Source: Candidatus Thorarchaeota archaeon
Lineage (GTDB): Archaea > Asgardarchaeota > Thorarchaeia > Thorarchaeales > Thorarchaeaceae
DNA: 61,860 nt
Direction: 5' to 3'
NCBI GenBank assembly: GCA_016839275.1
Contig: JAEOUM010000117.1
Span: 1 to 61,860, forward strand
Shown: positions 302-54,210 of the stretch, piece after piece
Layout of the letters: each line of letters begins with the position of its first letter
How positions within the stretch are numbered: the first letter of the stretch is position 1
The notes under the pieces: model-generated
What the model saw: the letters and a program-made list of their open reading frames with translations, nothing else
Told to the model about the DNA's origin: nothing
Database searches by the model: none
Made by a program: the position numbers and the translations under genes

Positions 302-411
302 TGGTGGGCCGCGCCGGATTTGAACCAGCGACCTTCGATTCTGATGAGTCAGAAGCTCGATCAGATTCTCGGTGTAAACGAGACATCATAGCCGGGCTAG
401 ACTAGCGGCCC
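302..411 (-). tRNA. tRNA-Val(UAC) with a ~32-nt non-canonical intron between the anticodon stem and the variable loop; CCA is encoded
   Basis: Reverse complement: GGGCCGC-TA-GTCT-AGCCCGGCTA-TGAT-G-TCTCG-TTTACAC-CGAGA-[~32 nt]-AGGTC-GCTGG-TTCAAAT-CCGGC-GCGGCCC-A-CCA. The insert has a 4-bp helix TGAT/ATCA flanked by unpaired triplets and an outer CGA/TCG pairing, which is bulge-helix-bulge-like. Confidence 0.75.
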
Positions 412-7192: not shown

Positions 7193-8173
7193 ATGACAAT
7201 TGCCATTCATGAGAGCGCACTAATTCGGCATTTCAATACTCGGAAAGAGGTCTTACGAGCATGGGAGGAGAGGATTGGAGCCAGGTTCTCACCGTTTCGT
7301 GGCTTTAAGATGCCTGATAGTCGTTTATACATAGAAGATAGCAACTTTCTGGATTCTATTGTTGATTTAATTATCACCAATGAAAGACATGTTTTCATTC
7401 GAGGGCCAGTAGGCTCAGGAAAGAGTACATTGATGCTTTTGGCATTAAGAGACCTACCCACACTAGCAGACCGCAGAGGGAACAAATTTGTCACTGGTTA
7501 TGTAGGTATGACTGGACTCTATGAAAAACAAATGGCAGCCGCTATTGCTGATTCTCTCAGAGTCAAGTATAAGCGATCATGGGAATCAAGTCAGATTATT
7601 GATGCTGTTGCTAAAGAGAGTCTCAGAAGGTATATCGAGGAAAAGAGTCGTACAGCTCTGTTCATAGAAGATGTAGCAGACAACCAAGAAGCTGCTTTTC
7701 ATAAACTTCGTTTTCTTGCAGATTTGCCCACTGAAGAAATGATTGATGCTTATGGAAAAACGAGGGCTCTTGATGAACCTATTGTCACCTTAGTGATGTC
7801 TGGAACAACAATTTACTGGAATGCAATGTTATCATTTTTACCACAGATTGCAGACCGAACAGAACCTCTCGATGTGCCTGCTTTAAATAATGCAAAAGCA
7901 AGAGAGTTCATAGGACGTAGAATCGCCTATGCCCAAGGACGCATCGATAGTTTTGATCCAGATAATTTTGATGTCTATCCATTTACTGATGACGCAATCA
8001 ATGTGATTAATACTGCGTCCAAAGGAAATCCACGCGACATCAGGATGCTAGCACGAGGATGTCAGCAAGTTGCTGCTGAGATTCTTCGTAAGAATAATGA
8101 TCCGACAGTGAATAGAGAAATTGCAGAGCTTGTTTCTGAGGCTTATGCAACTATTCTCAAGGAGGTTCAGTGA
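7193..8173 (+). CDS. P-loop NTPase, AAA_22 / ORC-Cdc6 / TniB-ExeA-like
   Basis: Walker A GPVGSGKST, Walker B-like ALFIEDV, and a sensor-like GNPRDIRMLARG near the C-terminus. Confidence 0.65.
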   Translation: MTIAIHESALIRHFNTRKEVLRAWEERIGARFSPFRGFKMPDSRLYIEDSNFLDSIVDLIITNERHVFIRGPVGSGKSTLMLLALRDLPTLADRRGNKFVTGYVGMTGLYEKQMAAAIADSLRVKYKRSWESSQIIDAVAKESLRRYIEEKSRTALFIEDVADNQEAAFHKLRFLADLPTEEMIDAYGKTRALDEPIVTLVMSGTTIYWNAMLSFLPQIADRTEPLDVPALNNAKAREFIGRRIAYAQGRIDSFDPDNFDVYPFTDDAINVINTASKGNPRDIRMLARGCQQVAAEILRKNNDPTVNREIAELVSEAYATILKEVQ

Positions 8174-16017: not shown

Positions 16018-17910
16018 TTACTCCACCTCTCTCTTTATTGCACCTTGAGGACACACTGCAACACAGGTACCACACAGATTACAGAGTGTTTCGTCAATGA
16101 CAGCCTTTTCGGTTTCAGGATCCATATACATAGCAGGACATGACAATCGATTAAGACAGCGTTTGCATGAGTTGCACATTTCAGACTCTACATAGTACTT
16201 AGGGAGCTCAATACCTTCACGACGACGATCTGCAGCTGTCAAGAGTGCACATGGTTCTTTTGAAACAAGTACTGCAGGACTATGATTGTCCCTTGCCCAC
16301 TTGACCATCTCTCTTACTTCTGCAACAAGACCAGCTATTGACTCAAAGGGATAAACAGTCTTTACATACTTAACACCAAGACCCTTGCATACCTCTTCAA
16401 TATCTAACGGCTTGACGTGTTTCTGCATGCCTGTGACTCCAGTACCAGGGTGAGGCTGATGGCCTGTCATTGCAGTCGTTCGATTGTCTAGCACCACTAG
16501 ACAGATTCGATGTTGGTTGTATACTGCATCTACGATACCTGGTAGTCCAGACGCAAAGAATGTACTATCGCCTATTGTAGCAACCACATCCTGATCAGTG
16601 ACCTCAGCGAGACCGCATGCAGTAGTTATTGATGAACCCATATCAAAAAGAATGTCTGCAGTTTCAAGAGGCGGTGCAATGCTTAGTGTGTAGCAGCCAA
16701 TATCGGAAGGATAGATTGCCTTCCCTCTTGTTGCAGCCCGGATAGCATAGTATGTTGCACGGTGCGGACAACCTGCACATAGTAGAGGTGGTCTCGGAGG
16801 AATATCAGGGATTTTCCTTGCTCGTTCATCGATATCTTGCCAGTTAATAGTTGTATTACAGTTAATAACTTTACATAATGCTTCCATCGCGATACGAGGA
16901 CTGTATTCTCCCACCCTCGAAAAGTATCCTTGCTCCTTGCCAAGGATTTCTACAGAAACACCATGAAGCTGAGCCAGTCGTCGTGTATGAGTTTCAATGA
17001 AGGGTTCAAGTTCTTCGACTATTACGACTTGTTTATGATTACGGAGGAATGATATAATCTTCTTCTCGGGGATAGGATGTGTAATCCCGAGCTTGAAGAT
17101 CTCTGCTTGGATATTCATTTCAGCAAGAGATTCTCGAACATAGTTGTAAGACACTCCACATGTGATGATTCCAAGTTCGCCTTCGCCTTCTATGAAGTTC
17201 AGTGAGCTGGTTTCGGATACTTCCTGAGCTTTTTTGATCTGTTTGAGAAGCCACGGATGACGAGTTCGTGCTACTGAGGGTATTGGTACAAACCTGAATG
17301 GTTCTTTCTCAAATTCCACCTTTTGAGGAAGGGTAGGGATTTGTCCGAACTCAACAGGTGCTCGGGTATGATTGACTCGAGTAGTTGTTCTGAAGAGTAC
17401 AGGAAGCTCAAACATCTCAGAAAACTTGTAGGCTTCAAGAAGCATTGATTTTGCTTCGATGGGATCAGAGGGCTCCATCATAGGCATATTTCCCATCAGT
17501 GCGTAGTATCTGCTATCATTCTCGTTCTGCGAGCTCCACATACTAGGATCATCTGCGACAACGATGACCATTCCTGCTCGGACTCCAACATATGCTAAAC
17601 TAAAGAATGGGTCAGCGGCTACATTGAGACCGGGTCCTTTGCAGACCATCATTGATCTGACACCGGCAATTGCAGCGGCACCAGCTACTTCCAAGGCGAC
17701 CTTTTCATTGGTACTGAACTCAAAGTAGAAGTTAGGAATGTGTGGTGCCATAGCTGTCAGATTGTTACCAATTTCGCTACTTGGTGTTCCAGGATAAAGA
17801 GCGACTAGTCTGACTCCAGCCTCTAGTACACCTCGAGCAATAGCTTCATTCGCAAGTAATAGCATTTTCTTCCCAGGATTGTCTTCGAGCAGTTCTTGAG
17901 GTCTTGCCAT
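16018..17910 (-). CDS. iorA: Indolepyruvate:ferredoxin oxidoreductase alpha subunit
   Basis: TPP-binding region (GDSTFFASG). C-terminal ferredoxin-like Cys clusters (CNSCKRC..., CNLCGTCVAVCP). A GGAGG lies just upstream of the ATG at 17908-17910, so that start is preferred over 17952. Confidence 0.85.
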   Translation of the reverse strand: MARPQELLEDNPGKKMLLLANEAIARGVLEAGVRLVALYPGTPSSEIGNNLTAMAPHIPNFYFEFSTNEKVALEVAGAAAIAGVRSMMVCKGPGLNVAADPFFSLAYVGVRAGMVIVVADDPSMWSSQNENDSRYYALMGNMPMMEPSDPIEAKSMLLEAYKFSEMFELPVLFRTTTRVNHTRAPVEFGQIPTLPQKVEFEKEPFRFVPIPSVARTRHPWLLKQIKKAQEVSETSSLNFIEGEGELGIITCGVSYNYVRESLAEMNIQAEIFKLGITHPIPEKKIISFLRNHKQVVIVEELEPFIETHTRRLAQLHGVSVEILGKEQGYFSRVGEYSPRIAMEALCKVINCNTTINWQDIDERARKIPDIPPRPPLLCAGCPHRATYYAIRAATRGKAIYPSDIGCYTLSIAPPLETADILFDMGSSITTACGLAEVTDQDVVATIGDSTFFASGLPGIVDAVYNQHRICLVVLDNRTTAMTGHQPHPGTGVTGMQKHVKPLDIEEVCKGLGVKYVKTVYPFESIAGLVAEVREMVKWARDNHSPAVLVSKEPCALLTAADRRREGIELPKYYVESEMCNSCKRCLNRLSCPAMYMDPETEKAVIDETLCNLCGTCVAVCPQGAIKREVE

Positions 17911-17992
17911 TAAGGATCCTCCATTCTTTGAAGCATGTTTCGAGTTGCACAAAGAGCACTGTATCAGTCTTGTGGTAATGGAAATTTACTTC

Positions 17993-18004
17993 GAACACGT
18001 GTTC
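17993..18004. promoter_or_regulatory. Perfect 12-bp palindrome GAACACGTGTTC (copy 1)
   Basis: Read directly. Coordinates cross-checked against the frame of the spurious ORF 17964-18374. Confidence 0.6.
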
Positions 18005-18022
18005 TATTGCGAAACTTATTTT

Positions 18023-18038
18023 GTATTACAAGTAATAC
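18023..18038. promoter_or_regulatory. Perfect dyad GTATTAC-AA-GTAATAC between palindrome copies 1 and 2
   Basis: Read directly. 7-2-7 inverted repeat. Confidence 0.5.
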
Positions 18039-18041
18039 ATT

Positions 18042-18053
18042 GAACACGTGTTC
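18042..18053. promoter_or_regulatory. Perfect 12-bp palindrome GAACACGTGTTC (copy 2)
   Basis: Read directly. Confidence 0.6.
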
Positions 18054-18065
18054 CAATACCATCAT

Positions 18066-18089
18066 GACCCCATCATTTCCACTCGAAAA
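18066..18089 (-). promoter_or_regulatory. Origin recognition box (ORB), left, inverted orientation
   Basis: Reverse complement TTTTCGAGTGGAAATGATGGGGTC: a GAGTGGAAA dyad core followed by a G-tract, as in archaeal Orc1/Cdc6 binding sites. Confidence 0.65.
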
Positions 18090-18211
18090 TATCAATAGGT
18101 TGTCTAAAAGTATAGATTCCGGTAAGTATAAATAGCTGTTTCGAAAGCTGATTTTTATCTCCATTTTTATCATCATATGATCTGTCGCTGAGAAGCACCC
18201 CATTTTTTGTT

Positions 18212-18234
18212 GTTCCAGTGGAAATGAAGGGGTG
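18212..18234 (+). promoter_or_regulatory. Origin recognition box (ORB), right
   Basis: GTTCCAGTGGAAATGAAGGGGTG: TCCAGTGGAAA core plus GGGG tract, a near-textbook archaeal ORB. Confidence 0.7.
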
Positions 18235-18289
18235 TTATCCAGATAATCTTTAGACCCCATCCAGGCAGCTATGGACATTAGACTAACTA

Positions 18290-18301
18290 GAACACGTGTT
18301 C
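18290..18301. promoter_or_regulatory. Perfect 12-bp palindrome GAACACGTGTTC (copy 3)
   Basis: Read directly. It lies on the far side of the ORB pair from copies 1 and 2. Confidence 0.6.
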
Positions 18302-18393
18302 CAAATGTCCGCCAAAGTACTGATATTAAGTGGTTCAACATCAAATCGGTTTGAAGATTAACCCATAGATCCATTGGATATTTACTCTAGGGA

Positions 18394-19722
18394 CTATTTT
18401 CTCTTTAGACATTCAAAGATAATGAAGTGTGGCCATCGATCTGCATCGAATGCTAAGAAATCTGGATGATTCTGAATATCTTCTATTGATGGCTGAGGTT
18501 CTCGGATTTCAGATATAACAAGACCTGCATCTTTCAATGCTTTACTATAATCCGCCAAAGTGCGTATGAATTGCCATGTTGGTGTCCCAAACCAGCTTGT
18601 CAACTCTCCACCAGTTTCAAAATATCGATCAATCAACTTAATATATCTCTCTTCATTTCTCCTCGAATCTCGAGGAAACTTGAAGTCCCCCGCAGTACAA
18701 GACCGACCAAAGACAGGATGCACATTTGACCAGATGAACCTTCCATCATCCTTCAGTACTCTGGCAATTTCTTTGAATGCATTCTTATAGTCTAGAACAT
18801 CAACCATCACAACATTTGAAACGACGACATCAAATGACTGGTTCTCAAACATACTCATCTCTGTCAGTGAACCTTCTAAAAATTTGCATCCTAGTTTCTT
18901 TTCAGATTCAATCTTCTTACAGTACTCGATGAACGGACCTGAGAAATCAATACCTATCGCTTTAGCTCCTTTTGAAGCAAGAACTCTTGTCAGATATCCA
19001 TTACCGCATCCAGCATCTAGAACTGCTAGTTTATCTACATCACCAAGGAGATTCCAAAGGGCTGGATCAATGATATACTTACGATTTGGGTCTCCACTCA
19101 TGTCCTCTCCATGAGCATTAATCCAAGTTTCACTGTTCTCACTCCACGCGACGCCCTGATCAGACAAATCGATTTCATCCTCAGGAATTCCATATTTGAG
19201 AATCCTGTGCGGCCCAAGTTCATCTCGAAGTTGCATGAGTCGATTAGGAAGTTTGAGAGCTTCCGTGATTTCTATCTCTTTGCCTTCTCTCTGTTCACTA
19301 GGCTTCCACTCAGGTTTCCAAGGTCGCTCAGATTCAACATTAAAGATGATATCTCGATTACCTAATTGCCACGGATGTTTGCCTTGAAACTCTGCGTATA
19401 GGAGATCATAATGATGTTCTCCACAATCGTCACAATAGAAATCATAGGCATATGTCCGATCCCAGAATGCGACTGGTTTCATGGCGGGTTCATTGCAATT
19501 TCCACAGATTAGTTGCTTGCTTTTCGGACACCAGTAGAACCAGCTAAAGTGGCGTTCCTCTCCACATATCGAACAGGTGAATCTTGCATGCCATGCACAA
19601 CGAAAGACATAGGTTTCAAAGGTGTAAGTGCCTTCGCGAGTTGGGTATCCTTTCTCGCCAGTTCCTGTAATTCTCTTGCAGTAATAGCATGGCTGTTTTT
19701 CGGATGGTTCATAGAAGCGCAT
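18394..19722 (-). CDS. Class I SAM-dependent methyltransferase with a Cys-rich (multi-zinc-ribbon) N-terminal domain
   Basis: The N-terminal ~110 aa carry CxxC pairs (CYYC, CSIC, CGNC, CDDC). Motif I VLDAGCGNGYL and post-I IGIDFS. Confidence 0.7.
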   Translation of the reverse strand: MRFYEPSEKQPCYYCKRITGTGEKGYPTREGTYTFETYVFRCAWHARFTCSICGEERHFSWFYWCPKSKQLICGNCNEPAMKPVAFWDRTYAYDFYCDDCGEHHYDLLYAEFQGKHPWQLGNRDIIFNVESERPWKPEWKPSEQREGKEIEITEALKLPNRLMQLRDELGPHRILKYGIPEDEIDLSDQGVAWSENSETWINAHGEDMSGDPNRKYIIDPALWNLLGDVDKLAVLDAGCGNGYLTRVLASKGAKAIGIDFSGPFIEYCKKIESEKKLGCKFLEGSLTEMSMFENQSFDVVVSNVVMVDVLDYKNAFKEIARVLKDDGRFIWSNVHPVFGRSCTAGDFKFPRDSRRNEERYIKLIDRYFETGGELTSWFGTPTWQFIRTLADYSKALKDAGLVISEIREPQPSIEDIQNHPDFLAFDADRWPHFIIFECLKRK

Positions 19723-19806: not shown

Positions 19807-20094
19807 TCATACTTCCCTGATTATCTCATAGACCCTGAATTTCAGAATATCTTGATACATCGAAAATAAACTATCAAATAACGTTCGATATTCATCCGGA
19901 ACGATAATTGCTGAGTCTGCCACAGCTTCAGCTCCAAGACATTCATCTAGGAGACCTAGCTTTCGTTTCTCCTTGATCTCTGACTTCGTTCTCCAAGTGT
20001 ATGTATATCCATAGAGCTCCTTGGTGAATGCCACACGACGCGCATTGCTTTGTCTTGCATGTCGACAATCATAGAGATAGAGATACGAGACCAT
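19807..20094 (-). CDS. Hypothetical small protein (about 95 aa from ATG 20092-20094)
   Basis: ORF only. The ORF-track GTG start (20121) lies inside palindrome copy 4. Confidence 0.35.
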   Translation of the reverse strand: MVSYLYLYDCRHARQSNARRVAFTKELYGYTYTWRTKSEIKEKRKLGLLDECLGAEAVADSAIIVPDEYRTLFDSLFSMYQDILKFRVYEIIREV

Positions 20095-20115: not shown

Positions 20116-20127
20116 GAACACATGTTC
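20116..20127. promoter_or_regulatory. Near-palindrome GAACACATGTTC (copy 4, one mismatch)
   Basis: Read directly. About 120 nt upstream of the LKR-like gene. A GTAATACA octamer follows at 20143-20150. Confidence 0.45.
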
Positions 20128-22918: not shown

Positions 22919-23590
22919 TTAGTCCCGGACACGCATCTGAATTGCTGCGAGGATTTCTTCCGCTCTGTCAGTTTCTTTCTGTACTTCTTTCAACTCAGTC
23001 TTGAGTCTGTAAGTGTACCCTGATCTATTCCCATAACGTTCTAGATGTCCTTTACCGTTATTCCACATCCGGGCTAAATACGTTGAAGCCGTGCTTTTAG
23101 GCAAATCCTCGCTGAATGAGTCTTCATAGATTTCGGCAACATCAAGCGATGAAAATTTCCCATGTTTGAAAGATGCATAGATAATAAGCTGCATCTTCTC
23201 AAAGTTACTCATCGAGTCAAAACGACTTTCATCGAATCCACTCTCTGATATTTCCTCAACAACTTCTTCAAATGTACAACCTGTACTCGTTTCTAAGAAT
23301 ACCTTAAACTTAGCAAACATTTCTTCTACACTACCGCCCTTCACCTGAAAACTAGACTCTTCTCCCATAGTTTCATCAGATACTACTATCTTGAAATCAA
23401 AGGGCGCCTCTGTGAGCGAGAGAATCTTACTAAATCTGTTGAGTGCTTCACTCGGATTCACATACTTGCATTGAAAAATCTCTCGGAGACCAGGAGCTGA
23501 GTAATAAGTAAATTCATAGACATAGTTGGTCCGGTCTCCATCACTCAATTTTATCACCACTAGAAGATACACACTAGATCTTCTATTCAT
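22919..23590 (-). CDS. Hypothetical protein with a C-terminal winged-helix-like DNA-binding segment
   Basis: SLDVAEIYEDSF...STYLARMWNNGKGHLERYGNRSGYTYRL resembles helix-turn-helix plus a beta wing. The N-terminal alpha/beta half is unassigned. Confidence 0.5.
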   Translation of the reverse strand: MNRRSSVYLLVVIKLSDGDRTNYVYEFTYYSAPGLREIFQCKYVNPSEALNRFSKILSLTEAPFDFKIVVSDETMGEESSFQVKGGSVEEMFAKFKVFLETSTGCTFEEVVEEISESGFDESRFDSMSNFEKMQLIIYASFKHGKFSSLDVAEIYEDSFSEDLPKSTASTYLARMWNNGKGHLERYGNRSGYTYRLKTELKEVQKETDRAEEILAAIQMRVRD

Positions 23591-23859: not shown

Positions 23860-23882
23860 GTTCCACAGGAAACGAAGGGGTG
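23860..23882 (+). promoter_or_regulatory. Third ORB-like element
   Basis: GTTCCACAGGAAACGAAGGGGTG matches the ORB at 18212-18234 at 20 of 23 positions, including the G-tract. Confidence 0.5.
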
Positions 23883-43166: not shown

Positions 43167-44372
43167 ATGGTTCATGATTATGTTGAAGACGAATTGAGCA
43201 GACGAAGTGTTTTCAAGTCTGAGCAATTTCTATCAATTGATTATGTACCCGAGAGCCTACCACATCGTCAATCTGAACTCAGAACGCTGGCTCAAAACTT
43301 CACGACTCTAATTCGTTCGCCAGGTAGAACCAGCCACAAATTCATCATTGAAGGTCCAGTCGGAACCGGAAAGACTGCAGTTGCTAAAAGATTCGCTGAA
43401 CAAATGGTCCAAGCCGCGGAACGACGAGAGATTAATCTTCACAATATACACATCAATTGCCGTGTCAATAAGACAGCCTATCTTGTTTTTCTACGTGCGC
43501 TCCGTGAATTCAAACCAGAATTTCCCCGGCGCGGTCATTCTCCTGAAGAATTACTTCAAATGTTGGTTGAAGTTCTCGATGAAGAAGATCGATACCTTTT
43601 GCTCATTCTTGATGAACTTGATTATTTCATCCGGCAAAGAGGTGCTGATATTCTATACGATTTAACAAGACTCACAGATGACAGATTAAATGCAAAACAA
43701 CGTGTTTCAATAATCGCAATAGGGCGTAGGATACCATTTGATGAAGATGCTGTTGATTCAAGTACACTGAGTACCCTCCAACGGAATATCTTACGGTTTT
43801 CCAAGTACGGTAGAAACGCTCTATATGATATTCTCAAAAACCGTGTTGACATGGCTTTTGAAAAGAATGCCGTTATGGATGAGACTCTCCATGTTATCTC
43901 AGATATTGCATCAGAAAGAGGTGATGCACGATATGCTATCGAGCTTCTATGGAGAGCAGGAAAACAAGCTGATAGTAGTCAAGTGAGTACAGTAGTTCCA
44001 GATTTCGCTCGTCAAGCAAAAGCAGACACACATCCTGAATTACGAAAGGAAATATTCAGCACGCTCACTCCTCAACACAAACTGTTTCTTCTAGCCACAG
44101 CTCGTCAGTTGAAAGAAACGCGTAGTGATTATGTTACCATAGGTGAGGTTGAAGAGATGTATCACTCAGCATGTGAGGAATATAGAAAAGAGCCAAGAGC
44201 GCACACCCAGATTTGGGAATGGGTTCAAGATCTTAACGCTCATGGAATAATCGATACGAAACGATCAGGAAGTGGCCAGAGAGGTCAGACAACACTCATT
44301 GGGCTTTCTGATGTTCCTGCAGAGATGTTAGAACACTTTATAGCTCATCTTCTAGATTCAAAGGAGTTGTGA
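43167..44372 (+). CDS. orc1: Orc1/Cdc6 replication initiator
   Basis: Walker A GPVGTGKT, Walker B LILDELD, sensor-2 GDARYAIELL and a C-terminal winged helix. Confidence 0.9.
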   Translation: MVHDYVEDELSRRSVFKSEQFLSIDYVPESLPHRQSELRTLAQNFTTLIRSPGRTSHKFIIEGPVGTGKTAVAKRFAEQMVQAAERREINLHNIHINCRVNKTAYLVFLRALREFKPEFPRRGHSPEELLQMLVEVLDEEDRYLLLILDELDYFIRQRGADILYDLTRLTDDRLNAKQRVSIIAIGRRIPFDEDAVDSSTLSTLQRNILRFSKYGRNALYDILKNRVDMAFEKNAVMDETLHVISDIASERGDARYAIELLWRAGKQADSSQVSTVVPDFARQAKADTHPELRKEIFSTLTPQHKLFLLATARQLKETRSDYVTIGEVEEMYHSACEEYRKEPRAHTQIWEWVQDLNAHGIIDTKRSGSGQRGQTTLIGLSDVPAEMLEHFIAHLLDSKEL

Positions 44373-44379
44373 AATTTTA

Positions 44380-44664
44380 GTGAAAACAGACAGCTCTCCG
44401 AAAATTGCAATTGAAGATCTTTTTTCATCTAGAGGAAGAATCAAGATACTTAGAGAACTTGCAGAATCTAATGAATTGAACATCTCAGAGCTTTGTAGGA
44501 GAGTAGATCTTAATCACAGCTCAACAAAGTCACACCTTGAAGTGCTTTTGAGCTCCGGACTAATCGAAGAGAAGAGATTTGGTCGAATTAAGATATATCG
44601 CTATAAGATTGAGGACTTGAGAGCACGCTCACTCCGGAGCTTCTTCGATCTCTGGGAATCATGA
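44380..44664 (+). CDS. ArsR/SmtB-type winged-helix transcriptional regulator
   Basis: RIKILRELAESNELNISELCRRVDLNHSSTKSHLEVLLSSGLIEEKRFGRIKIYR. GTG start. Confidence 0.65.
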   Translation: MKTDSSPKIAIEDLFSSRGRIKILRELAESNELNISELCRRVDLNHSSTKSHLEVLLSSGLIEEKRFGRIKIYRYKIEDLRARSLRSFFDLWES

Positions 44665-44678
44665 AGGAGTCTTAATAG

Positions 44679-45536
44679 ATGACAGACTATTTGGCGCGTC
44701 TGTTCTATCTTGGAGACCGCTATTACGGATCTCAGATACAACCTGGGCTAAAAACAGTCCAAGGAGAGCTTATCAAAGCTGTTTCGAAATGGAGTGGAGA
44801 AACCCACTCTTCGCATACAATTCAATTATCCGGGCGAACTGATAGAGGAGTTCACAGTCTAGGGCAATTGGTGATGATTACTACTGACAAGCGTTTCTCC
44901 ATCGATGGTATCAATAAGCATCTCCCTGAAGATATTGTACTTTGGGCACGAGTGCAGGCTCCTGAGGGATTTAGACCGCGTTCTGGTGCTTTAATGCGCC
45001 ACTACCGGTATTTCCTAGACGAATCTTGGAACAATATCAATCAGAACTACATTAGAGAAGCAATCTCTCTGGTTGTAGGATCAAATGATTTTAACTTCCT
45101 TTCAAAACCTGATGAACGCAGAAATACTGTTACCACAGTATTGAATGTGGCTTTTAGTGAGGTCCCTAATTTAAAATTTTTAGATATCTATGGAACCAGT
45201 TTCCTATGGAAGTTTGTGCGAAAAGTTGTGACATTATTGACTGCAATCGGTTTGGGGAAGATAAAACCTGAAACAATTCTTGAAATCCTTAATGGAAGCA
45301 AGAAAACTGTTCGAGGTGGAATAGAACCTGCACCACCAGAAAACCTTGTACTCATGGAAACTATTGTACCTTTCCGATTTATTACTAGTAAGTATGCACT
45401 ACGAAGAATTCAGAATTATCTTAATACTCGACGTGAATTTCTTAGACGATCTAGTATAACACTATTCGGTCTTACTGACCACTTCTCTTCTTCAATGATG
45501 TCTTATCAACACTCAACCAATTCGCATAATCCGTGA
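44679..45536 (+). CDS. truA: tRNA pseudouridine(38-40) synthase TruA/Pus1 family
   Basis: YYGSQIQPGLKTVQGEL and the catalytic loop SGRTDRGVHSLGQ. Confidence 0.85.
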   Translation: MTDYLARLFYLGDRYYGSQIQPGLKTVQGELIKAVSKWSGETHSSHTIQLSGRTDRGVHSLGQLVMITTDKRFSIDGINKHLPEDIVLWARVQAPEGFRPRSGALMRHYRYFLDESWNNINQNYIREAISLVVGSNDFNFLSKPDERRNTVTTVLNVAFSEVPNLKFLDIYGTSFLWKFVRKVVTLLTAIGLGKIKPETILEILNGSKKTVRGGIEPAPPENLVLMETIVPFRFITSKYALRRIQNYLNTRREFLRRSSITLFGLTDHFSSSMMSYQHSTNSHNP

Positions 45537-46701
45537 TACTTTTTGGCTTTAATCCAATTATTTCAGTGATAGTGTCATAATGAGTTCTCATCACTCTTGA
45601 TTTTGAAACTCCTGTTAATTTCGACAAACCTGATAAAACGTCTGACCGTTTGTCTTTTGATCTATTTCCCTGCCAAATTAGAAGTGGCCATGTAGGTTGA
45701 GAATAGCTGACCTTTCGATATGGAGTTATGTTTCTGCTCCCAGCAACACCAGTTGCAAGAAAATCATAGACATATGAGAGTAGTTTCCAATTCTGGTCTC
45801 TCATAATTCTCCCCAAAGCTAAATCTGCAAGTGAAAGTCCATCGAAACCATCACTCAATTCCTTCTGAGAGAGTAGATGCAGGTGTAGATTCTCTTCTAA
45901 CCACAATACTAACTCATCATGGTCAAGCTCAGATTCGGATAATATTCTTCGCGCAGTTTCTGCATCTGTTGTCATGAACACTCTTCGAAGTGTTTCTTCA
46001 GTTCCACGTCGAACATCTCTAATTGCGGCTTCGGTAGATGTATCTATTGTACCCCTTTTTACATAGGACTCGAGGTCTGAGATAGCAGCTCGAAGGTCCC
46101 CACCTGAGTTTTCTGCAATCTGATTGATTATTTCTTGTGAAACTTTAGCTTTGTTTTGTTTTGCTATTCGGAGAAGCACGGTAGTTATGTTTTCATTAGC
46201 AATTTGCTCAAAGGAAAATACTTGCGATATTTTATACAAGTCCTTAAGTCGTGGACTATTTGGGTCATTTGCAGTCATCACGATTGGATGGACTGATTCT
46301 TGAATCACTTTTACAATCGCACCAACACCGCCTCTATCACTCGTACCAGAGAGACCATCTACTTCATCTAAGAGAATTATTCTAAATCGTCCATCAAGAG
46401 TTTGCTGTGAAGCAGCTCTCCACACAAGGGTTTCAATACTATCTTTGTTTCTTTTATCACTTGAATTAAATTCGACAAGTTCCATATCTAATTCATTGGA
46501 CAACGCACCAACAGTAGCAGTCTTTCCAATACCTGGCGGTCCAATCAGTAGAGCGGCATGTTTACTGGGTATGCCTTTCTTCCAAGACATCACCCAGACC
46601 TTTAATGAAGCAATGGCATCCGGATTACCCACAATGAGTTCCAGATTTCTTGGTCGGTGTTTTTCTGGCCATGGAAGGCTCTCATCACTCATTACTACCA
46701 C
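45472..46701 (-). CDS. rfcL: Replication factor C large subunit
   Basis: WPEKHRP, Walker A GPPGIGKT and Walker B ILLDEVD. 17-nt overlap with rfcS. Confidence 0.85.
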   Translation of the reverse strand: MVVMSDESLPWPEKHRPRNLELIVGNPDAIASLKVWVMSWKKGIPSKHAALLIGPPGIGKTATVGALSNELDMELVEFNSSDKRNKDSIETLVWRAASQQTLDGRFRIILLDEVDGLSGTSDRGGVGAIVKVIQESVHPIVMTANDPNSPRLKDLYKISQVFSFEQIANENITTVLLRIAKQNKAKVSQEIINQIAENSGGDLRAAISDLESYVKRGTIDTSTEAAIRDVRRGTEETLRRVFMTTDAETARRILSESELDHDELVLWLEENLHLHLLSQKELSDGFDGLSLADLALGRIMRDQNWKLLSYVYDFLATGVAGSRNITPYRKVSYSQPTWPLLIWQGNRSKDKRSDVLSGLSKLTGVSKSRVMRTHYDTITEIIGLKPKSITDYANWLSVDKTSLKKRSGQ

Positions 46702-47647
46702 TACCTAATCCCACATGTGCTAAAAGAGCAGTGAGCTGAATTTCTCCGTTCGAACCCTCCCCGATTCTGAACTCGACTTCTGCAATTTGTTCTAGTATGT
46801 CCATTTGAAGCTGATTTGGTAGATTAAGTGTTTGAATCTCCTTATGCATTTGTTTCACTAAATCAACAGGAGAAACACCCTCATGGTAGATTAATGATCT
46901 AAGAGCCTGCAAAGCATCATTGTATCTACCATCACGAGCATCCGTTATCATTGTTTTCACAGTTTCAGGACTAGCTCTACCAGATATTGCATAAACAATC
47001 TTGTCTGTGATTTGTTGGCCAGTTGATGATGCTGCCTGTAAAAGGTTAATCGCAGCTCTCATATCTCCTTCTGTAAGATAGAGTATTGCATCAATTCCTG
47101 TTTGGTGGATTTTGATTTTTTCTAGGTCTGCTATATGTTTCAAACGAGTAGCTATTCCATCATCATCTAATCGCGAAAATCTGAATATTGCACATCTTGA
47201 TTGTATCGGCGGGATTATCCTGCTTGAATAGTTGCAAATCAAAATCATTCTACAAGATTGAGAGTAAGATTCCATAGTCCTTCGAAGAGCATGTTGAGCA
47301 TCAGTAGTCAGATGGTCCGCTTCATCTAGTACAAGAATCTTAAACGGCGCATTGCCTGATGGCATTATTCTTGCAAAGTTCTTTATCTGATTTCTGACAA
47401 CATCAATACCTCTCTCATCACTAGCATTAAGTTCCATGAAGTTACGTTCATAGCTATCTCCAAACAGATCCTTTGCCATTGCCATTGCTGCTGTTGTCTT
47501 ACTAGTTCCTGGTGGACCAGTAAAGAGACAGTGAGGCACTGCTTTATTCTCGACAAACATCACTAGGCTCTTGATAATCTGTTCCTGGCCTATTATACCA
47601 CCAAGAGTGGGTGGTCGGTATTTCTCAGTCCAAAGGTCTAAGTCCAT
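46685..47647 (-). CDS. rfcS: Replication factor C small subunit (no intein)
   Basis: WTEKYRP, GPPGTSKTT, VLDEADHLT and the SRC motif IQSRCAIFRF. ATG at 47645-47647 is preferred. Confidence 0.9.
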   Translation of the reverse strand: MDLDLWTEKYRPPTLGGIIGQEQIIKSLVMFVENKAVPHCLFTGPPGTSKTTAAMAMAKDLFGDSYERNFMELNASDERGIDVVRNQIKNFARIMPSGNAPFKILVLDEADHLTTDAQHALRRTMESYSQSCRMILICNYSSRIIPPIQSRCAIFRFSRLDDDGIATRLKHIADLEKIKIHQTGIDAILYLTEGDMRAAINLLQAASSTGQQITDKIVYAISGRASPETVKTMITDARDGRYNDALQALRSLIYHEGVSPVDLVKQMHKEIQTLNLPNQLQMDILEQIAEVEFRIGEGSNGEIQLTALLAHVGLGSGSNE

Positions 47648-47787
47648 TGTGGATTCCCACCATTTCTTCAATATTTCGACTCGTAATGCTGGATGGTTCA
47701 TGAATTCATTCTTGGTCCCTTAAAAGGTTCGTCAGAGACTTTAATGTTCAACTCTAGTGAGTAATTGTCTTGAACTTTTTAATCACT

Positions 47788-48408
47788 ATGACTCAAAATA
47801 GTAGAGCAAGGTCTTTATTTCATCTGGGATTCACAAATGTGTGTTCAGCCATGAGATTATCTGTTGATTCCAAAGAGGCAATTAAGAGATTTAAGATGTT
47901 ATTTCTTAATGAAGTTCGAGAATGCATTTTTCTAAAACCAACACCTGAGTTTACTGTGACTGGACAAAAATTTGGTCCCTTCCAGAAAGGTGATCGCTCA
48001 GACGTTCCAAATTGGGTTATTGAAAATCTAATCAAGAACGAGTATGTCGATATTGCTCCAGAGGATGCCTATGAATCATTGCGACGGCTCCAAAACCTCT
48101 ATCGTGAAGAGGAGAAACATCCTCATAAATTTCAATCATTCCAACCTTTTCTCTATGCCGCCACAGCTAGGAAAACACTACGTCTACAGAGTGACAAAAC
48201 ATCGATGGGTCCTCGTGAGTATGAAGATATCGAGAAGCTTCACAAAATAATCCCCTTTCTCGTTGAAACAAGGCTTTCGAAGATACTACGCGTTGCGAAA
48301 TCCGGTGCGTTTCAAGAAAAGAAGCAACAGATGGCCCTTGAGGAGAGATGGCTATGTGAGGAGCTTGCGGAGTTACTCTCTGGATGGCGCCAAAACATAA
48401 TGGAGTAG
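47788..48408 (+). CDS. GINS complex subunit (Gins51/Sld5-Psf1-like)
   Basis: B-domain-like GPFQKGDRSDVPNWVIENLIKNEYV followed by a helical A-domain (LQNLYREE...LVETRLSKIL). Position directly upstream of mcm supports the call. The start codon is uncertain. Confidence 0.55.
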   Translation: MTQNSRARSLFHLGFTNVCSAMRLSVDSKEAIKRFKMLFLNEVRECIFLKPTPEFTVTGQKFGPFQKGDRSDVPNWVIENLIKNEYVDIAPEDAYESLRRLQNLYREEEKHPHKFQSFQPFLYAATARKTLRLQSDKTSMGPREYEDIEKLHKIIPFLVETRLSKILRVAKSGAFQEKKQQMALEERWLCEELAELLSGWRQNIME

Positions 48409-48501
48409 GCTGTGTGTATTAGTGCCCTTAAATACAAACCCTGAAGAACTAGGAGTCTGAAAAAAAAATGCAACAGCGCGCCTTGCTATCTATCGAGGCT
48501 G

Positions 48502-50577
48502 ATGATTATGTCAAGCTATGATGAATCCCAAGAACGGTTTGAGGAGTTCCTTAGAACCTATAAGGATGATCAAGGTAACCTTACATATTGGACACGTGTC
48601 CAACAAATGTCAATTAATGAAGAAACATCCATACCTATTGACTATCAAGAACTAATTAGTTTTGACAACGTGTTTTTAACTCTCGCCGCTGAAAATCCTC
48701 AAAAGTTCATTGATATTGTTAATGCAGCACTTGTTTCTGTTCTAAGAGTAGAAGATCCAGACTACATAAGCAGTCTTGATACTACTGTGATTAAAGCAAG
48801 GATTACTAACTATACTGATCACATAGCTTTACGGGCTATTCGATCCAAACATATTGGGAAGCTAGTCCATGTGAGCGGTATTATGATGCGGGCAAGTGAA
48901 GTAAAACCACTATTAGTACAGGCTATGTTTCAGTGTAGAATTTGTGATGAAAAAATCCCGCAGACGCAAGAAGAGGGAAGATATACAGAACCTGCACGAT
49001 GCCCCCTTTGTGATAAAAAAACCCCAATGCGATTGCTTCCACACGAATCTCAATTTCGTGATTGGCAAAAAGTGCGTATTCAAGAGTCGCCGGATGAACT
49101 ACCCCCCGGTCAGATGCCACGGTCCGTCGATATAATTCTAGAGGGAGAAGACATCGTGGACAAATCCCGACCAGGTGACCTTGTAAAGGTCACTGGAGTG
49201 CTTCAAACAACGCCTGATTTCTCAAGGAGAGGGGGAAAGCTTGCTACTTTCAATGTATTCATCGAAGCAAACGGCGTAGAAATATCTGAGAAGGAGTACG
49301 AACAGCTTGATTTGTCTGAAGAGGATATGAAACAAATTCAAGAATTCTCAGAGGATCCATATGTTCATGAAAGGATTGTAGCATCTATTGCTCCATCAAT
49401 ACAAGGACATCTATCCATCAAAGAGTCTATTGCATTATTACTCTTTGGCGGTGTTGGGAAGACACTACCTGATGGAACACGCCTAAGAGGTAAATCCAAT
49501 ATACTACTTATTGGCGACCCTGGAACTGGAAAAAGTCAGATTCTGAAATTTGTAGCAGGACTTGCTGCCCGAGGTCTCTATACCTCTGGGAAAGGAACGA
49601 CAGCCGCGGGTCTAACTGCTGCAGTCATACATGATACCGAATCCGGTGCTATGACGCTTGAGGCTGGTGCATTGGTATTATCGGACCAGGGAATTGCTTG
49701 TATTGATGAATTCGATAAGATGGACTCTAACGATCGAACTGCCATTCATGAGGCTATGGAGCAGCACACAGTCAGTATTGCTAAAGCTGGAATTATTGCA
49801 ACACTAAATGCAAGAACATCAATCCTTGCAGCTGCAAATCCGGTTTATGGCCGTTACAACATCGCAGAAACTCCCATCAAAAACACTGATTTGCCTTTCA
49901 CAATTTTATCGCGGTTTGACCTGATTTGGATTATGATTGATACAATTAATGAAGAAAGTGACCGTGAAATAGCGCAGTTTATTCTCAATATGCACCAGAC
50001 GAAGAAGCCTAAAAGTGATACAGCAATGCCTCCTGTTACACCCATTTTTCTGAAGAAATACATTGGCTATGCAAATCGCTATGTGATTCCACAGCTTACT
50101 GTTGAGGCTGTGGAAGAGATTGAGAACTTTTACGTTGATTTCAGAAAAAATGCTGAGGGTGGTGATACGGTCCCAATCACCGCACGACAACTAGAGTCTC
50201 TTGTACGTCTAGCAGAAGCACGTGCAAAGATGGCTTTGCGCTCCCAGGTTACAAAGGAGGATGCTCAGGCTGCAGTTCGATTGATGTACGAGTCACTTCA
50301 TATGGTCGCACTTGATAGAACTACTGGCAAGATTGACATAGATCGTCTTGTTTCTTCGATGAGCGCTGATCAAAGAGGTTCTGTTAACAAGATAATGAGC
50401 GCACTTCATGATCTTGATCCCGATGGGACTTCGTCTGTTGACCGAGATGTATTAGTGCAGAAAGCCGTTTCCATGGGTCTTGCAAAGGAAAAGGTAGAGG
50501 AGATGATTGACAAGCTCCTAACTGATGGTACTCTCTTTGCTCCCAGAGATGGGAAAATTAGGGAAGCCAAAAGATAG
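48502..50577 (+). CDS. mcm: Minichromosome maintenance helicase MCM (no intein)
   Basis: Zinc finger CRICDEK...CPLCDK. Walker A GDPGTGKSQ and Walker B CIDEFDKM. Arg finger SRFDL. C-terminal winged helix. Confidence 0.95.
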   Translation: MIMSSYDESQERFEEFLRTYKDDQGNLTYWTRVQQMSINEETSIPIDYQELISFDNVFLTLAAENPQKFIDIVNAALVSVLRVEDPDYISSLDTTVIKARITNYTDHIALRAIRSKHIGKLVHVSGIMMRASEVKPLLVQAMFQCRICDEKIPQTQEEGRYTEPARCPLCDKKTPMRLLPHESQFRDWQKVRIQESPDELPPGQMPRSVDIILEGEDIVDKSRPGDLVKVTGVLQTTPDFSRRGGKLATFNVFIEANGVEISEKEYEQLDLSEEDMKQIQEFSEDPYVHERIVASIAPSIQGHLSIKESIALLLFGGVGKTLPDGTRLRGKSNILLIGDPGTGKSQILKFVAGLAARGLYTSGKGTTAAGLTAAVIHDTESGAMTLEAGALVLSDQGIACIDEFDKMDSNDRTAIHEAMEQHTVSIAKAGIIATLNARTSILAAANPVYGRYNIAETPIKNTDLPFTILSRFDLIWIMIDTINEESDREIAQFILNMHQTKKPKSDTAMPPVTPIFLKKYIGYANRYVIPQLTVEAVEEIENFYVDFRKNAEGGDTVPITARQLESLVRLAEARAKMALRSQVTKEDAQAAVRLMYESLHMVALDRTTGKIDIDRLVSSMSADQRGSVNKIMSALHDLDPDGTSSVDRDVLVQKAVSMGLAKEKVEEMIDKLLTDGTLFAPRDGKIREAKR

Positions 50578-50612
50578 GCCATTCAGTATCAAAATCAGAA
50601 GTGGGGAATCAT

Positions 50613-52850
50613 ATGGTACGCCTAGAGGAGCTCGACATCAATAAAAAGGTGATAAGTCTCCTTCAGAATCTTGGCGTCACTAAGCTTTTCCCTCCTCAGG
50701 TAAGTGCATTTGAAACAGGAGTATTACAAGGCAATAACCTCGTTTTAGCCATCCCTACTAGTTCTGGAAAGACACTAGTTGCTGAAGTGTGCATGTTAAA
50801 AGCAATTCTTGATGGTCGTGGTAAGGCGCTTTATCTTGTTCCTCTGAAGTCTCTTGCAAGGGAGAAGTATGATGACTTCAAGAAGTATGAAACATTAGGC
50901 ATCACTGTAGCAATGTCTGTTGGGGATTATGATTCTCCAGGCACGAAACTACGTGAAGCTGACATTGTAGTAATGACGACAGAACGAGCGGACTCAATAG
51001 TTCGACATAAGGTTGATTGGATTAATGAAATCGGGATAATTATAGTGGATGAGATTCATCTAATCAATGACACTTCTCGAGGTCCCACACTAGAGATGGT
51101 TCTTGCTAAGCTAATTCAAATGATAAAAGTGCAGATTATTGCATTAAGTGCAACAATTTCAAATGCTGATGAAATTGCAGATTGGCTTGACGCAGAACTT
51201 GTAAAGAGTACTTGGAGACCTGTACCGCTTAGTGAGGGTGTCTATCTTGAGGGTGAAATCGATATCTTTGAAGAAGGAAGATATGAGAAAAAATCAACAA
51301 GGCAGATTCCACGAAAGTATAAAGATGAAGTGACTGATATCGTATGTGACACCCTTGATGAAAATGGACAAGTGCTTCTTTTTGTATCAAGTAGAAAATC
51401 TACCATAGCAATGGCAAAACGACTTGCCCCTTCACTTCGGAAATATCTCTCTAGAGATTCAATAGAAGATTTATTGCGCATTGCTAAAAAGATAGGAAAA
51501 ACTCCTTCGTCACCAGATGAATCCAAAACGCTTGCTAAGTTGATCTCAGAAGGTGTGGCGTTCCATCATGCTGGTCTCGATAATCAGGAACGTGCTCTTG
51601 TAGAAGATGCGTTCAAAGACAATCTACTAAAAGTCGTGGTTGCCACCCCTACGCTCGCAGCAGGTGTGAATCTTCCAGCAAGACGTGTAATCATTCGTGA
51701 TTATCGAAGATTTGAGCAAAACCGTGGAAGTTACCCAATACCAATTCTTGAATACAAACAAATGGCAGGACGCGCAGGAAGACCCAAATATGACCAGTAT
51801 GGCGAAGCACTTCTTATAGCAAGGTCAGAATCAGAGAAAGACGCTTTAATTGAGCATTATACATTATCAGATCCTGAGGAGATTTACTCTAGACTTGCAT
51901 CACCCACTGCAATAAGGTCGCATCTTCTTGCTTCAATAGCTGCAGAATTGACACGCACATACCCAGAGATTGATGCTCTTATATCGAAAACATTCTATGC
52001 ATGCCAAAACAATCAGAAGAATATTACCCATCATGTTGAATCAGCTTTAGTCTTTCTAGAGGACGGAAAACTGATTGAAATCTCACCAGCTGGCAAGTAT
52101 GTTGCAACTCCTCTTGGGCGGCGGACATCACAGCTCTATATTGATCCTCAGACTGCAATTTTGTTTCGTGATGTCCTAGCACAGACTGATGAGCATACTC
52201 AATTAGGTATGCTACATATGATATGCCACACACCAGACCAACCCGTGACATATGTTTCAAGGACAGAGCTTGAAGAATATGAGGTCTTTGTAGATGACAA
52301 CTCAAATGAGTTCTTAATCGAACCTCCTGATATAGAAGAAGAACACTATGTAGATTTCCTAGGAGAGGTCAAGACTGCACGATTACTAAGTGAGTGGATA
52401 TCAGAATCCACTGACAGGGATATTACAGAGAGATACGGTGTTGGTATGGGCGATGTCCACAGATTTGTACAATCTGCAGAGTGGTTGACTTACTCTGCAT
52501 CAGAGATTGCGAGAATCATCAATAAACCAACTCACATTCCTTTGTTGCACAGTCTTCGTTCTAGACTCAAATATGGTGTACGTCCCGATCTCCTAGAACT
52601 TGTGAATCTTCGTGGAATTGGTAGAATACGAGGGAGAATGATTCATAATCAAGGTCTCAGAAACCTTACTGATTTGTATCATGTGCCAATCAATGATCTA
52701 GCAAGAATCCCAACTATTGGTAGAGCAATAGCAGAATCAATAAAGAAGCAACTCGGTGCTGATTTTCCATCATCACCAACTTCTATTGATGACTCTACAG
52801 ATGATGAGGATTTAGGATCAATACAGACATTACTTGAGGACTTCACTTAG
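50613..52850 (+). CDS. hel308: Hel308/Hjm (Ski2-like) DNA helicase
   Basis: Motif I PTSSGKT, DEIH box and motif VI QMAGRAGR. C-terminal helix-hairpin-helix LVNLRGIGRIRG. Confidence 0.9.
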   Translation: MVRLEELDINKKVISLLQNLGVTKLFPPQVSAFETGVLQGNNLVLAIPTSSGKTLVAEVCMLKAILDGRGKALYLVPLKSLAREKYDDFKKYETLGITVAMSVGDYDSPGTKLREADIVVMTTERADSIVRHKVDWINEIGIIIVDEIHLINDTSRGPTLEMVLAKLIQMIKVQIIALSATISNADEIADWLDAELVKSTWRPVPLSEGVYLEGEIDIFEEGRYEKKSTRQIPRKYKDEVTDIVCDTLDENGQVLLFVSSRKSTIAMAKRLAPSLRKYLSRDSIEDLLRIAKKIGKTPSSPDESKTLAKLISEGVAFHHAGLDNQERALVEDAFKDNLLKVVVATPTLAAGVNLPARRVIIRDYRRFEQNRGSYPIPILEYKQMAGRAGRPKYDQYGEALLIARSESEKDALIEHYTLSDPEEIYSRLASPTAIRSHLLASIAAELTRTYPEIDALISKTFYACQNNQKNITHHVESALVFLEDGKLIEISPAGKYVATPLGRRTSQLYIDPQTAILFRDVLAQTDEHTQLGMLHMICHTPDQPVTYVSRTELEEYEVFVDDNSNEFLIEPPDIEEEHYVDFLGEVKTARLLSEWISESTDRDITERYGVGMGDVHRFVQSAEWLTYSASEIARIINKPTHIPLLHSLRSRLKYGVRPDLLELVNLRGIGRIRGRMIHNQGLRNLTDLYHVPINDLARIPTIGRAIAESIKKQLGADFPSSPTSIDDSTDDEDLGSIQTLLEDFT

Positions 52851-53894: not shown

Positions 53895-53979
53895 TGACTT
53901 GTTCCTCCCTCTTTAGATATAGGCTTCATAGAGTTGGTCACAACCAACAGATAAGTCTGAAGTTTTGATTTGATTTTTA

Positions 53980-53991: not shown

Positions 53992-54050
53992 CTAATTTAT
54001 CGCTGTGAGGCAATCTTTATTTTGAATGCAGATACCGACAACGTTAGCAT

Positions 54051-54187
54051 GGGTCGGTAGTCTAGCTTGGTATGATTCTTGCTTGGGGCGACTGAGGAAA
54101 TCACGCCTCGAGTCACAGAATGCAAGAGACCGGGAGTTCAAACGACCTGGGAGAACCCTGTCGGAACAAGTCTCCCCCGGCCCACCA
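54051..54187 (+). tRNA. tRNA-Pro(GGG) with two introns (about 32 nt at 37/38 and about 28 nt in the T-loop); CCA is encoded
   Basis: GGGTCGG-TA-GTCT-AGCTTGGTA-TGAT-T-CTTGC-TTGGGG-[~32 nt]-T-GCAAG-AGACC-GGGAG-TTCAAA-[~28 nt]-T-CTCCC-CCGGCCC-A-CCA. 137 nt in total versus about 77 nt mature. Confidence 0.7.
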
Positions 54188-54210
54188 CTTCTATCTTCAT
54201 AATACGCATA

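Follow-up and report, generated by a model that had tools for sequence, protein, structure and literature searches.

Conserved palindromes around a putative Orc1/Cdc6-type origin of Thorarchaeota are candidate accessory origin sites in Asgard archaea

The stretch of DNA analysed here (hereafter the window; 61,860 bp) is contig JAEOUM010000117.1 of a Candidatus Thorarchaeota archaeon (GenBank assembly GCA_016839275.1). It carries a 12-bp perfect palindrome, GAACACGTGTTC, of which three exact copies surround a pair of inverted origin recognition boxes (ORBs) next to iorA, the gene for the alpha subunit of indolepyruvate:ferredoxin oxidoreductase. The original prediction for this DNA had singled out these three copies and offered two functions for them, namely operators of iorAB or binding sites for a second origin-associated factor. 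Our results suggest that the palindromes are accessory sites of a putative Orc1/Cdc6-type origin, and that some copies probably also serve as promoter elements.

Motif searching located the three exact copies at the predicted positions 17993-18004 (P1), 18042-18053 (P2) and 18290-18301 (P3), two to the left and one to the right of the ORB pair. P1 is the outermost copy on the iorA side and is followed by the A/T-rich sequence GTAAATTT, P2 is separated by 13 bp from the left ORB, on the outer side where the G-string ends, and P3 is situated 56 bp outside the right ORB. Two further intergenic copies had been overlooked. A fourth exact copy, P4 (53980-53991), is solitary, with a histone-deacetylase-family gene on one side and an intron-containing tRNA gene on the other, and P5 (20116-20127; GAACACATGTTC), which has one mismatch, is found 21 nt upstream of the ATG of a gene for a 95-aa protein and approximately 120 nt upstream of a divergent lysine-ketoglutarate reductase-like gene. 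Since only about 0.003-0.004 exact copies of a self-complementary 12-mer are expected in 61.9 kb, the earlier view that the recurrence is not due to chance is borne out. A two-mismatch match at 48590, inside mcm, is at the chance level (shuffled sequences gave a mean of 1.97 matches with ≤2 mismatches). The conserved unit exceeds 12 bp, as the symmetry runs through the flanks to give the 18-bp sequence TTRGAACAYRTGTTCYAA.

The ORB pair is real. The left ORB (TTCGAGTGGAAATGATGGGGT; 18067-18087, minus strand) has its G-string directed away from the unwinding element and is conserved in related loci, and the right ORB (TTCCAGTGGAAATGAAGGGGT; 18213-18233, plus strand) is followed by the conserved sequence GTTATCCAGATAA; only 0.01 ORB matches would be expected by chance. 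The two boxes enclose a putative duplex unwinding element (DUE) of 125 bp with 67% A+T (18088-18212), which contains two conserved inner motifs (TTTATCTCCATTTTT at 18154 and GTATAAATAG at 18126). The locus thus has the canonical ORB(-)/DUE/ORB(+) layout. This layout is kept in 20 or more related loci, and the length of the DUE stays within 123-126 bp across all of the Thorarchaeota loci. iorA (16018-17910, minus strand), which is followed by iorB, is a neighbour of the origin in Thorarchaeota and in some, but not all, of the other lineages. Its start is most likely the ATG at 17910, which is preceded by GGAGGAT; a protein identical to its product is on record, and relatives align with it from residue 1. 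P1 therefore lies 83-94 nt upstream of iorA, and P1 and P2 together span 83-143 nt upstream, which replaces the previously given range of 40-130 nt.

We examined conservation in 24 loci from metagenome-assembled genomes (MAGs) of Thorarchaeota, an Asgard lineage, which were obtained by scanning GTDB species genomes with IorA (78-93% identity). Twenty-two of these loci (L numbers below denote individual loci) include the upstream region, and all 22 have kept the motif around the same ORB pair. Each contains three to four palindromes (≤1 mismatch) no more than 860 bp upstream of iorA and none elsewhere in approximately 22 kb. At the same threshold, 90 sites were counted in 546 kb of Thorarchaeota sequence, the only one beyond the origin region being the copy at 53980. 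Orthologues of P1 are present in nearly all Thorarchaeota loci, at about 93-105 nt from the iorA start (L008, which lacks the outermost copy, is the exception), and orthologues of P5 in all of them and in L033, which belongs to another lineage. Variation in the core of the 90 sites falls almost wholly on the central CG, apart from two sites with GACC in one arm. Among 105 sites that fit GAACAYRTGTTC, the centre is CG in 72, TG in 24, CA in 5 and TA in 4. The palindrome had no match in 34 distant metagenome control loci (L055-L088; 28-40% deacetylase identity), and a scan of viral contigs for AGAACACGTGTTCT returned 66 single background matches and no clusters.

In all 22 Thorarchaeota cases that were measured, 13 bp separate the palindrome from the ORB, across a spacer whose sequence is variable. 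Two arrangements occur, which are mirror images of each other. In type A (the window and L005-L012), the order is P-56-ORB-125-ORB-13-P-(24 to 60)-P, where P is a palindrome and the numbers are distances in bp, and iorA comes next. In type B (L013, L015-L018, L020, L024 and L025), it is P-(50 to 94)-P-13-ORB-124-ORB-56-P. The far-side gap is 56 bp in the 17 type A and type B cases that were measured. Six other loci (L019, L021, L022, L023, L026 and L027) retain the side with 13 or 14 bp, and their other side has only 14-24 bp. From palindrome to palindrome, the cassette is 258-260 bp long. The type B cassette aligns as the reverse complement of type A (alignment scores of 60-84, versus about 0 in direct orientation), and the cassette has therefore been inverted as one unit between Thorarchaeota clades. 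The breakpoints of the inversion are at the outer palindromes, and the inner DUE motifs and a second palindrome (GTATTAC, described below) were inverted along with it. Each orientation is fixed within its clade. The gene order in relatives is the lysine-ketoglutarate reductase gene (leftwards), a palindrome, the small gene for the 95-aa protein (rightwards), a palindrome, ORB, DUE, ORB, one or more palindromes, and iorA (rightwards); the palindrome that corresponds to P3 comes directly 3' of the stop codon of the small gene.

Other Asgard lineages were reached by means of a profile of the 95-aa protein, and the loci of divergent members were fetched. In Jordarchaeales (L041-43), the order is PolD-DP1, cdc6, a gene for a winged-helix-like protein, the small gene, two tandem copies of TAGAACATGTGTTCCAAA, 15 bp, and the ORB pair; a third exact copy occurs 0.5 kb past the ORB pair, and iorA is absent. 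In a low-GC lineage (L034-37), PolD-DP1, cdc6, the winged-helix gene and the small gene are followed by TTAGAACATATGTTCTAA, 13 bp, ORB, DUE and the second ORB, and the other flank continues with 10 bp, the same TTAGAACATATGTTCTAA variant, and iorA. The 'Promethearchaeota' lineage (L038-40) has an ORB-like element between two palindromes and no iorA. One palindrome of L155 (53% GC) overlaps the stop codon of the small gene, and the ORB gaps there are 49 bp and 11 bp. Both flanking sites of L157 lack the outer half-site and retain the half proximal to the ORB, again in mirror symmetry. The related modules L033-L043 have cdc6 and PolD-DP1 within 0.2-1.6 kb, so that the initiator gene is adjacent to the module in those lineages. 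Because several loci, such as L033, L038 and L041, have no iorA beside the module, the constant association is that of the small gene, the ORB pair and the palindrome, rather than that of the palindrome and iorA.

Several copies also hold conserved positions relative to start codons, which is the case for P1, P4 and P5; no gene has P2 or P3 at promoter distance. The palindrome proximal to iorA is found 90-105 nt upstream of the start codon in most Thorarchaeota genomes, generally at about 95-100 nt. The surroundings of P4 were compared by scanning metagenomes with the deacetylase protein, which gave 11 close and 34 more distant loci. In 9 of the 11 close relatives, the locus contains a single palindrome, the orthologue of P4, at 93-107 nt upstream of the deacetylase start. 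Further downstream of the palindrome, the leaders of both iorA and the deacetylase gene contain a conserved block, AGACTKAT. As these copies hold conserved positions upstream of iorA, the deacetylase gene and the small gene, the proposed palindrome-binding factor very probably also acts in transcription.

Separately, we observed a near-invariant block, TACCACAAGACTGATACAG, in the iorA leader (17935-17958), and AGACTTATC(A/T)G in the deacetylase leader (53923-53934) at a similar distance from the palindrome; the two blocks share CTGATA in opposite orientation.

Two conserved genes near the ORB pair are candidates for encoding the binder. The gene for the 95-aa protein (19807-20094, minus strand), which the original prediction had also missed, is present in 22 of 22 related Thorarchaeota loci and is flanked by palindromes in every lineage. 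The protein is highly conserved. The family occurs in Asgard lineages only, always beside an ORB pair and usually also beside cdc6 and PolD-DP1, and its profile retrieved only 14 clusters among 1.84 billion representatives. There was no match in Pfam, NCBIfam, PADLOC or PHROGs, and no significant sequence match in the PDB, with either the single sequence or the profile. An AF2 model with a mean predicted local distance difference test (pLDDT) score of 89.6 has a beta-alpha-beta-beta-...-alpha-beta, ferredoxin-like fold. The N-terminal half is basic (pI ~10) and contains an invariant helix and hairpin rich in R, N, R and K. The putative recognition helix reads NARR or PRR where the half-site is conserved and NSKR in L157, where the half-sites are altered; this parallel change is suggestive only. 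We tentatively nominate the adjacent 95-aa protein as the palindrome binder, an identification that we hold to be possible and still doubtful. Membership of the protein in the Cas2/VapD group was considered and rejected, since Cas2 chains reached only TM scores of ~0.5 at non-significant E values (0.07-0.08), with no sequence family match. Beyond the ferredoxin-like topology, the protein resembles Cas2 only in an invariant Asp after strand 1.

The second candidate, a very highly conserved protein of ~209 aa, has a winged-helix-like C-terminus and matches no family; its gene (22919-23590, minus strand) follows a solitary ORB-like element. Winged-helix-like homologues of ~150-220 aa are encoded beside the origin in every other lineage sampled (L033, L034, L038 and L041), and the relatives listed for the window's protein are at least 78% identical and nearly all from Thorarchaeota. 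It may be an uncharacterised origin-associated protein, and we consider it an unlikely binder of the palindrome. The rest of the probability goes to an unlinked factor such as an Orc paralogue. Within the window, we saw no second full Orc1/Cdc6 gene and only a weak AAA/ORC-like open reading frame (ORF) at 7193-8173. The solitary ORB-like element, the third in the window (23861-23881, plus strand), is positioned upstream of the winged-helix gene and is conserved approximately 4.4-4.6 kb upstream of iorA in relatives; no palindrome was found beside it.

A second palindrome, GTATTAC-AA-GTAATAC, is located between P1 and P2 (18023-18038) and had likewise gone unnoticed. It is the last member of a one-sided array of the form (T)GTATTAC-NN-GTAATAC(A), whose 17 copies (≤2 mismatches) all fall in the 18 kb to the left of the origin; the 44 kb on the other side contain none. 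The copies are at 541, 5346, 5985, 7139, 8990, 9977, 10558, 11308, 11317, 12394, 12903, 13494, 13910, 14586, 15995, 16853 and 18023, so that the array extends leftwards to at least position 541. Counting both strands, 36 matches were observed versus 0.39 expected by chance, and the 8-mer TGTATTAC of the array has a z-score of 19. Nine copies fall within coding sequences. The array is conserved across all Thorarchaeota loci, with offsets from iorA that stay fixed, and in the inverted clades the GTATTAC palindrome travels with the cassette; the array is absent from the Thorarchaeota deacetylase loci and from the other Asgard lineages sampled. We would guess that the array has a centromere-like or domain-organising function. 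Short repeats also occur near the origin or the winged-helix gene in two of those lineages, TGTGAAT(A) about 10 times in L034 (9093-9495) and GTTAACA seven times in L041 (9595-9918), perhaps as counterparts to the GTATTAC motif that are specific to each lineage.

Among the other neighbours, a gene for a 442-aa protein that combines a cysteine-rich N-terminus with a class I methyltransferase domain (18394-19722, minus strand) separates P3 from the small gene in the window's genome only. It is specific to the window's lineage, because the gene order of relatives lacks it. The distance between P5 and P3 is 1814 bp in the window, 459 bp in L005 and 308-369 bp in the other relatives, and L005, the closest relative, keeps a ~130-bp remnant of this methyltransferase gene. 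Divergent lysine-ketoglutarate reductase-like and saccharopine dehydrogenase-like genes are found beyond the copy at 20116. The histone-deacetylase-family gene starts at 53894 on the minus strand, with P4 upstream of it. Two intron-containing tRNA genes were read by eye at approximately 54045-54190 (plus strand) and at 305-411 (minus strand). The one at ~54045, which apparently has two insertions and an encoded CCA, is conserved beside the deacetylase gene in relatives and was missed by ARAGORN and by Rfam at the gathering threshold. A cluster of replication genes, comprising orc1/cdc6, the large and small subunits of RFC, MCM and a Hel308-like helicase, occupies 43167-52850, some 25-35 kb from the ORB pair. 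No ORB was found beside orc1 in the window. A 136-aa ORF (17964-18374, minus strand) that spans the ORBs and the DUE is annotated as a gene in public assemblies; it has no family match and overlaps the ORBs and the DUE, for which reasons we treat it as almost certainly spurious. The conserved GTTATCCAGATAA (18234-18246) abuts the G-string of the right ORB and is kept in relatives, and CTGGATAA repeats within the 56-bp spacer; this region may be a further binding site.

Our preferred interpretation, to which we assign a probability of roughly 60%, is that the palindromes are sites of an accessory component of an Orc1/Cdc6-type origin in Thorarchaeota and related Asgard lineages, and that they are bound by a predicted homodimer. 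Of the two functions first put forward, the second, that of sites for an additional origin-associated factor, is the one favoured by the 13-bp spacing to the ORB, the inversion of the cassette as a unit, and the palindrome-ORB layout in loci without an adjacent iorA. A sequence-specific homodimer would bind each palindrome with high affinity as duplex DNA through the half-site TTRGAACA, with tolerance for a central YR. One dimer would sit behind the G-string end of an ORB, at a distance of 13 bp, and another outside the other ORB, so that together they would delimit the cassette. In structures from Sulfolobus and Aeropyrum, the AAA+ domain of ORB-bound Orc1 sits on the side of the G-string end. 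The bound dimers may position or stabilise Orc1, or they may insulate the origin from the flanking promoters. The same protein would repress the small gene and modulate iorA and the deacetylase gene. Repression is most likely at the small gene, because P5, at 21 nt from the ATG, is inside the expected core promoter, and, should the binder be the small protein itself, this would amount to autoregulation. In the case of iorA and the deacetylase gene, where the site is just upstream of an A/T-rich stretch, the factor would activate transcription or occlude the B recognition element (BRE). A fuller version of this interpretation, in which Thorarchaeota, Jordarchaeales and related Asgard archaea would share a lineage-specific accessory module of the origin and the 95-aa dimer docks 13 bp behind ORB-bound Orc1 on each flank, represses its own gene, and gates licensing or firing as a functional analogue of UBP/ucm or Abf1/B3, is one that we regard as speculative and somewhat unlikely.

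Several observations weigh against an accessory origin function. The origin itself is putative, being read from sequence: the A/T-enrichment of the DUE is modest (67% versus 59% for the window), the GC skew is uninformative on origin position, and orc1/cdc6 (43167-44372) is 25 kb away from the ORB pair in the window rather than adjacent to it. The far-side spacing is not universal, with values of 56, 22-24 or 14 bp. The ORB pair of L033 has no flanking palindromes, and the sole copy in that locus is 14 nt upstream of the ATG of the small gene. P1, P4 and P5, which make up three of the five copies in the window, are at positions expected of promoter elements. All of the sampled loci were recruited via origin-adjacent genes or the deacetylase gene rather than genome-wide. 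As for the candidate binders, the ferredoxin-like fold of the 95-aa protein is generic and not a recognised DNA-binding fold, Foldseek returned no significant match for it in the PDB or BFVD (best E 0.02), and the AF2 model of the winged-helix protein is poor (pLDDT 52).

The proposal that the palindromes are operators, in its general form, holds that a dimeric transcription factor has a small regulon made up of iorAB, the small gene and/or the divergent lysine-ketoglutarate reductase/saccharopine dehydrogenase genes, and the deacetylase gene, and that the origin merely shares the same intergenic region. Because three of the five copies sit where promoter elements are expected, such a purely transcriptional factor keeps some weight: P1 has its A/T-rich stretch next to it, P5 is very close to the ATG of the small gene, P4 is conserved upstream of the deacetylase gene, the two leaders have a similar downstream block, and the only copy in L033 is the promoter copy. 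For some copies a promoter role is indeed likely, but a set of operators does not explain P2 and P3, and would not predict a gap to the ORB of exactly 13 bp where the spacer sequence varies, sites in mirror symmetry around the DUE, or a cassette inverted intact. Nor would it predict the palindrome-ORB layout in L038 and L041, where neither iorA nor a start codon is nearby; given several such loci, operators of iorAB cannot be the whole story. We therefore judge it unlikely that the palindromes function in transcription only. The palindromes might instead be centromere-like, in the manner of bacterial parS, and serve to load a protein of chromosome segregation or condensation near the origin. 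They are few, nearly perfect and conserved phylum-wide, and they cluster at the origin, at least one further copy being found 36 kb away; the CACGTG core is common to them and parS (TGTTNCACGTGAAACA), and the dense one-sided array of the second palindrome begins at the same spot. We think this improbable, since the half-sites are unlike those of parS, no ParA, ParB or SegAB-like gene was found among the window ORFs scanned, and neither the fixed 13-bp spacing to the ORB nor the promoter-proximal copies would be expected of a centromere.

The inversion of the 260-bp cassette between clades, with ends at the outer palindromes, could also be read as a sign that the palindromes are recombination sites, either as targets of a site-specific recombinase or as substrates of homologous exchange that flip the origin cassette. 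Such a function is highly improbable in our judgement. The orientation is fixed in each clade, as would be expected after a single ancient event, and the sites have no recombinase gene linked to them. The conserved solitary copy beside the deacetylase gene lacks a partner site, and identical palindromes can mediate an occasional inversion without this being their function. We give least credence to a hairpin, cruciform or terminator, or to an SOS-type LexA box. The sequence is self-complementary, and P3 directly follows the stop codon of the small gene in relatives. The predicted hairpins have stabilities of only about -1 kcal/mol, with z-scores near 0, and the flanks show no covariation (37 of 105 pairs are complementary versus 46.8 expected if they were independent); the arm sequence is invariant rather than compensated, and no T-run comes after the sites. 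With stability at the level of shuffled sequences and flanks that do not covary, we reject a hairpin or terminator. The motif does fit the form GAAC-N4-GTTC of Gram-positive LexA boxes; none of the window ORFs scanned was seen to encode an S24 or LexA-like protein, and there is no repair gene among the neighbours. The LexA box and parS are thus look-alikes in form only, the partners that define them not having been found among the scanned ORFs of the window.

Accessory origin elements as such are already known. To our knowledge, the ucm element of Sulfolobus, together with the protein UBP, is the only one that has been characterised in archaea. It is the closest analogue of the Asgard palindrome that we know of. 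Sulfolobus oriC1 needs ucm, which is bound by UBP, a protein with over 300 further binding sites (Dhanaraju et al., 2025, PMC12141716). ucm is situated inside the DUE, midway between the ORBs, is non-palindromic, and is bound by a UBP monomer; UBP has been reported only from Sulfolobales and Desulfurococcales, and the authors ask about analogues in other lineages (PMC12141716). Like ucm, the palindrome is a short conserved cis-element distinct from the ORBs within an Orc1-type archaeal origin. UBP is a small, lineage-restricted, sequence-specific protein that is also found at many intergenic sites elsewhere. In contrast to ucm, the Asgard element is an 18-bp palindrome outside the ORBs, with an unrelated sequence and three to four copies per origin, and the candidate proteins have no detectable relation to anything in the PDB. 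None of the top 50 fold matches of the 95-aa protein is described as UBP. Position, sequence and symmetry rule out that the palindrome is ucm itself.

In yeast, the B3 element of ARS1 is a site for Abf1, a general regulatory factor with sequence specificity, beside the initiator-binding core, and Abf1 also works at promoters. B3/Abf1 differs from the arrangement described here in being eukaryotic, with an unrelated factor family and one non-palindromic site, and the likeness implies no homology. Sulfolobus origins hold sites for specific Orc1/Cdc6 paralogues (C2 and C3) beside the ORBs, and Orc1-2 is a promoter-binding regulator. These are likewise extra protein-binding sites beside ORBs, together with an origin-type protein that also acts at promoters, but Orc proteins bind asymmetric sites as monomers. 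With parS/ParB, the Asgard sites have in common that they are few, highly conserved palindromes with a CACGTG core near the origin; they differ in their half-sites, in the fixed spacing to initiator sites, and in that some copies are promoter-proximal.

The conserved DUE motifs deserve mention as an observation in their own right. Their reverse complements are CTATTTATAC(TTAC) (18126-18135) and AAAAATGGAGATAAA (18154-18168). CTATTTATAC, which is also TATA-box-like, agrees at 8 of 10 positions with Sulfolobus ucm as quoted in the Ori-Finder-Arch preprint (TTATACAAAC).

Literature searches returned no description of the palindrome, in line with the original remark that it is not a described archaeal operator, and the exact 12-mer turned up only in three unrelated papers, of which the sole microbiological one is a review of the SOS response in S. 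aureus; nor did we find a paper that describes ORBs or other origin motifs in Asgard archaea. As far as we could find, the position of the palindrome outside the ORBs, its palindromic form, its distribution in Asgard archaea and the linked genes have not been described before.

The start of replication is essentially unstudied in Asgard archaea, the closest known relatives of eukaryotes. The locus described here provides a concrete candidate for an accessory origin element, which consists of an 18-bp site with a fixed geometry beside Orc1 sites and is conserved across several Asgard classes. Two conserved, uncharacterised genes that neighbour the origin can be expressed and their products tested for binding. 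The combination of a palindrome, 10-15 bp, and an ORB beside the small gene also offers an origin signature for Asgard MAGs, one that works where cdc6 is not adjacent, as in Thorarchaeota. If the 95-aa protein does dock behind ORB-bound Orc1 as a self-repressing dimer, then, together with the GTATTAC array, it would represent a way of organising the chromosome near the origin that has not been seen before, in the archaea most closely related to eukaryotes.

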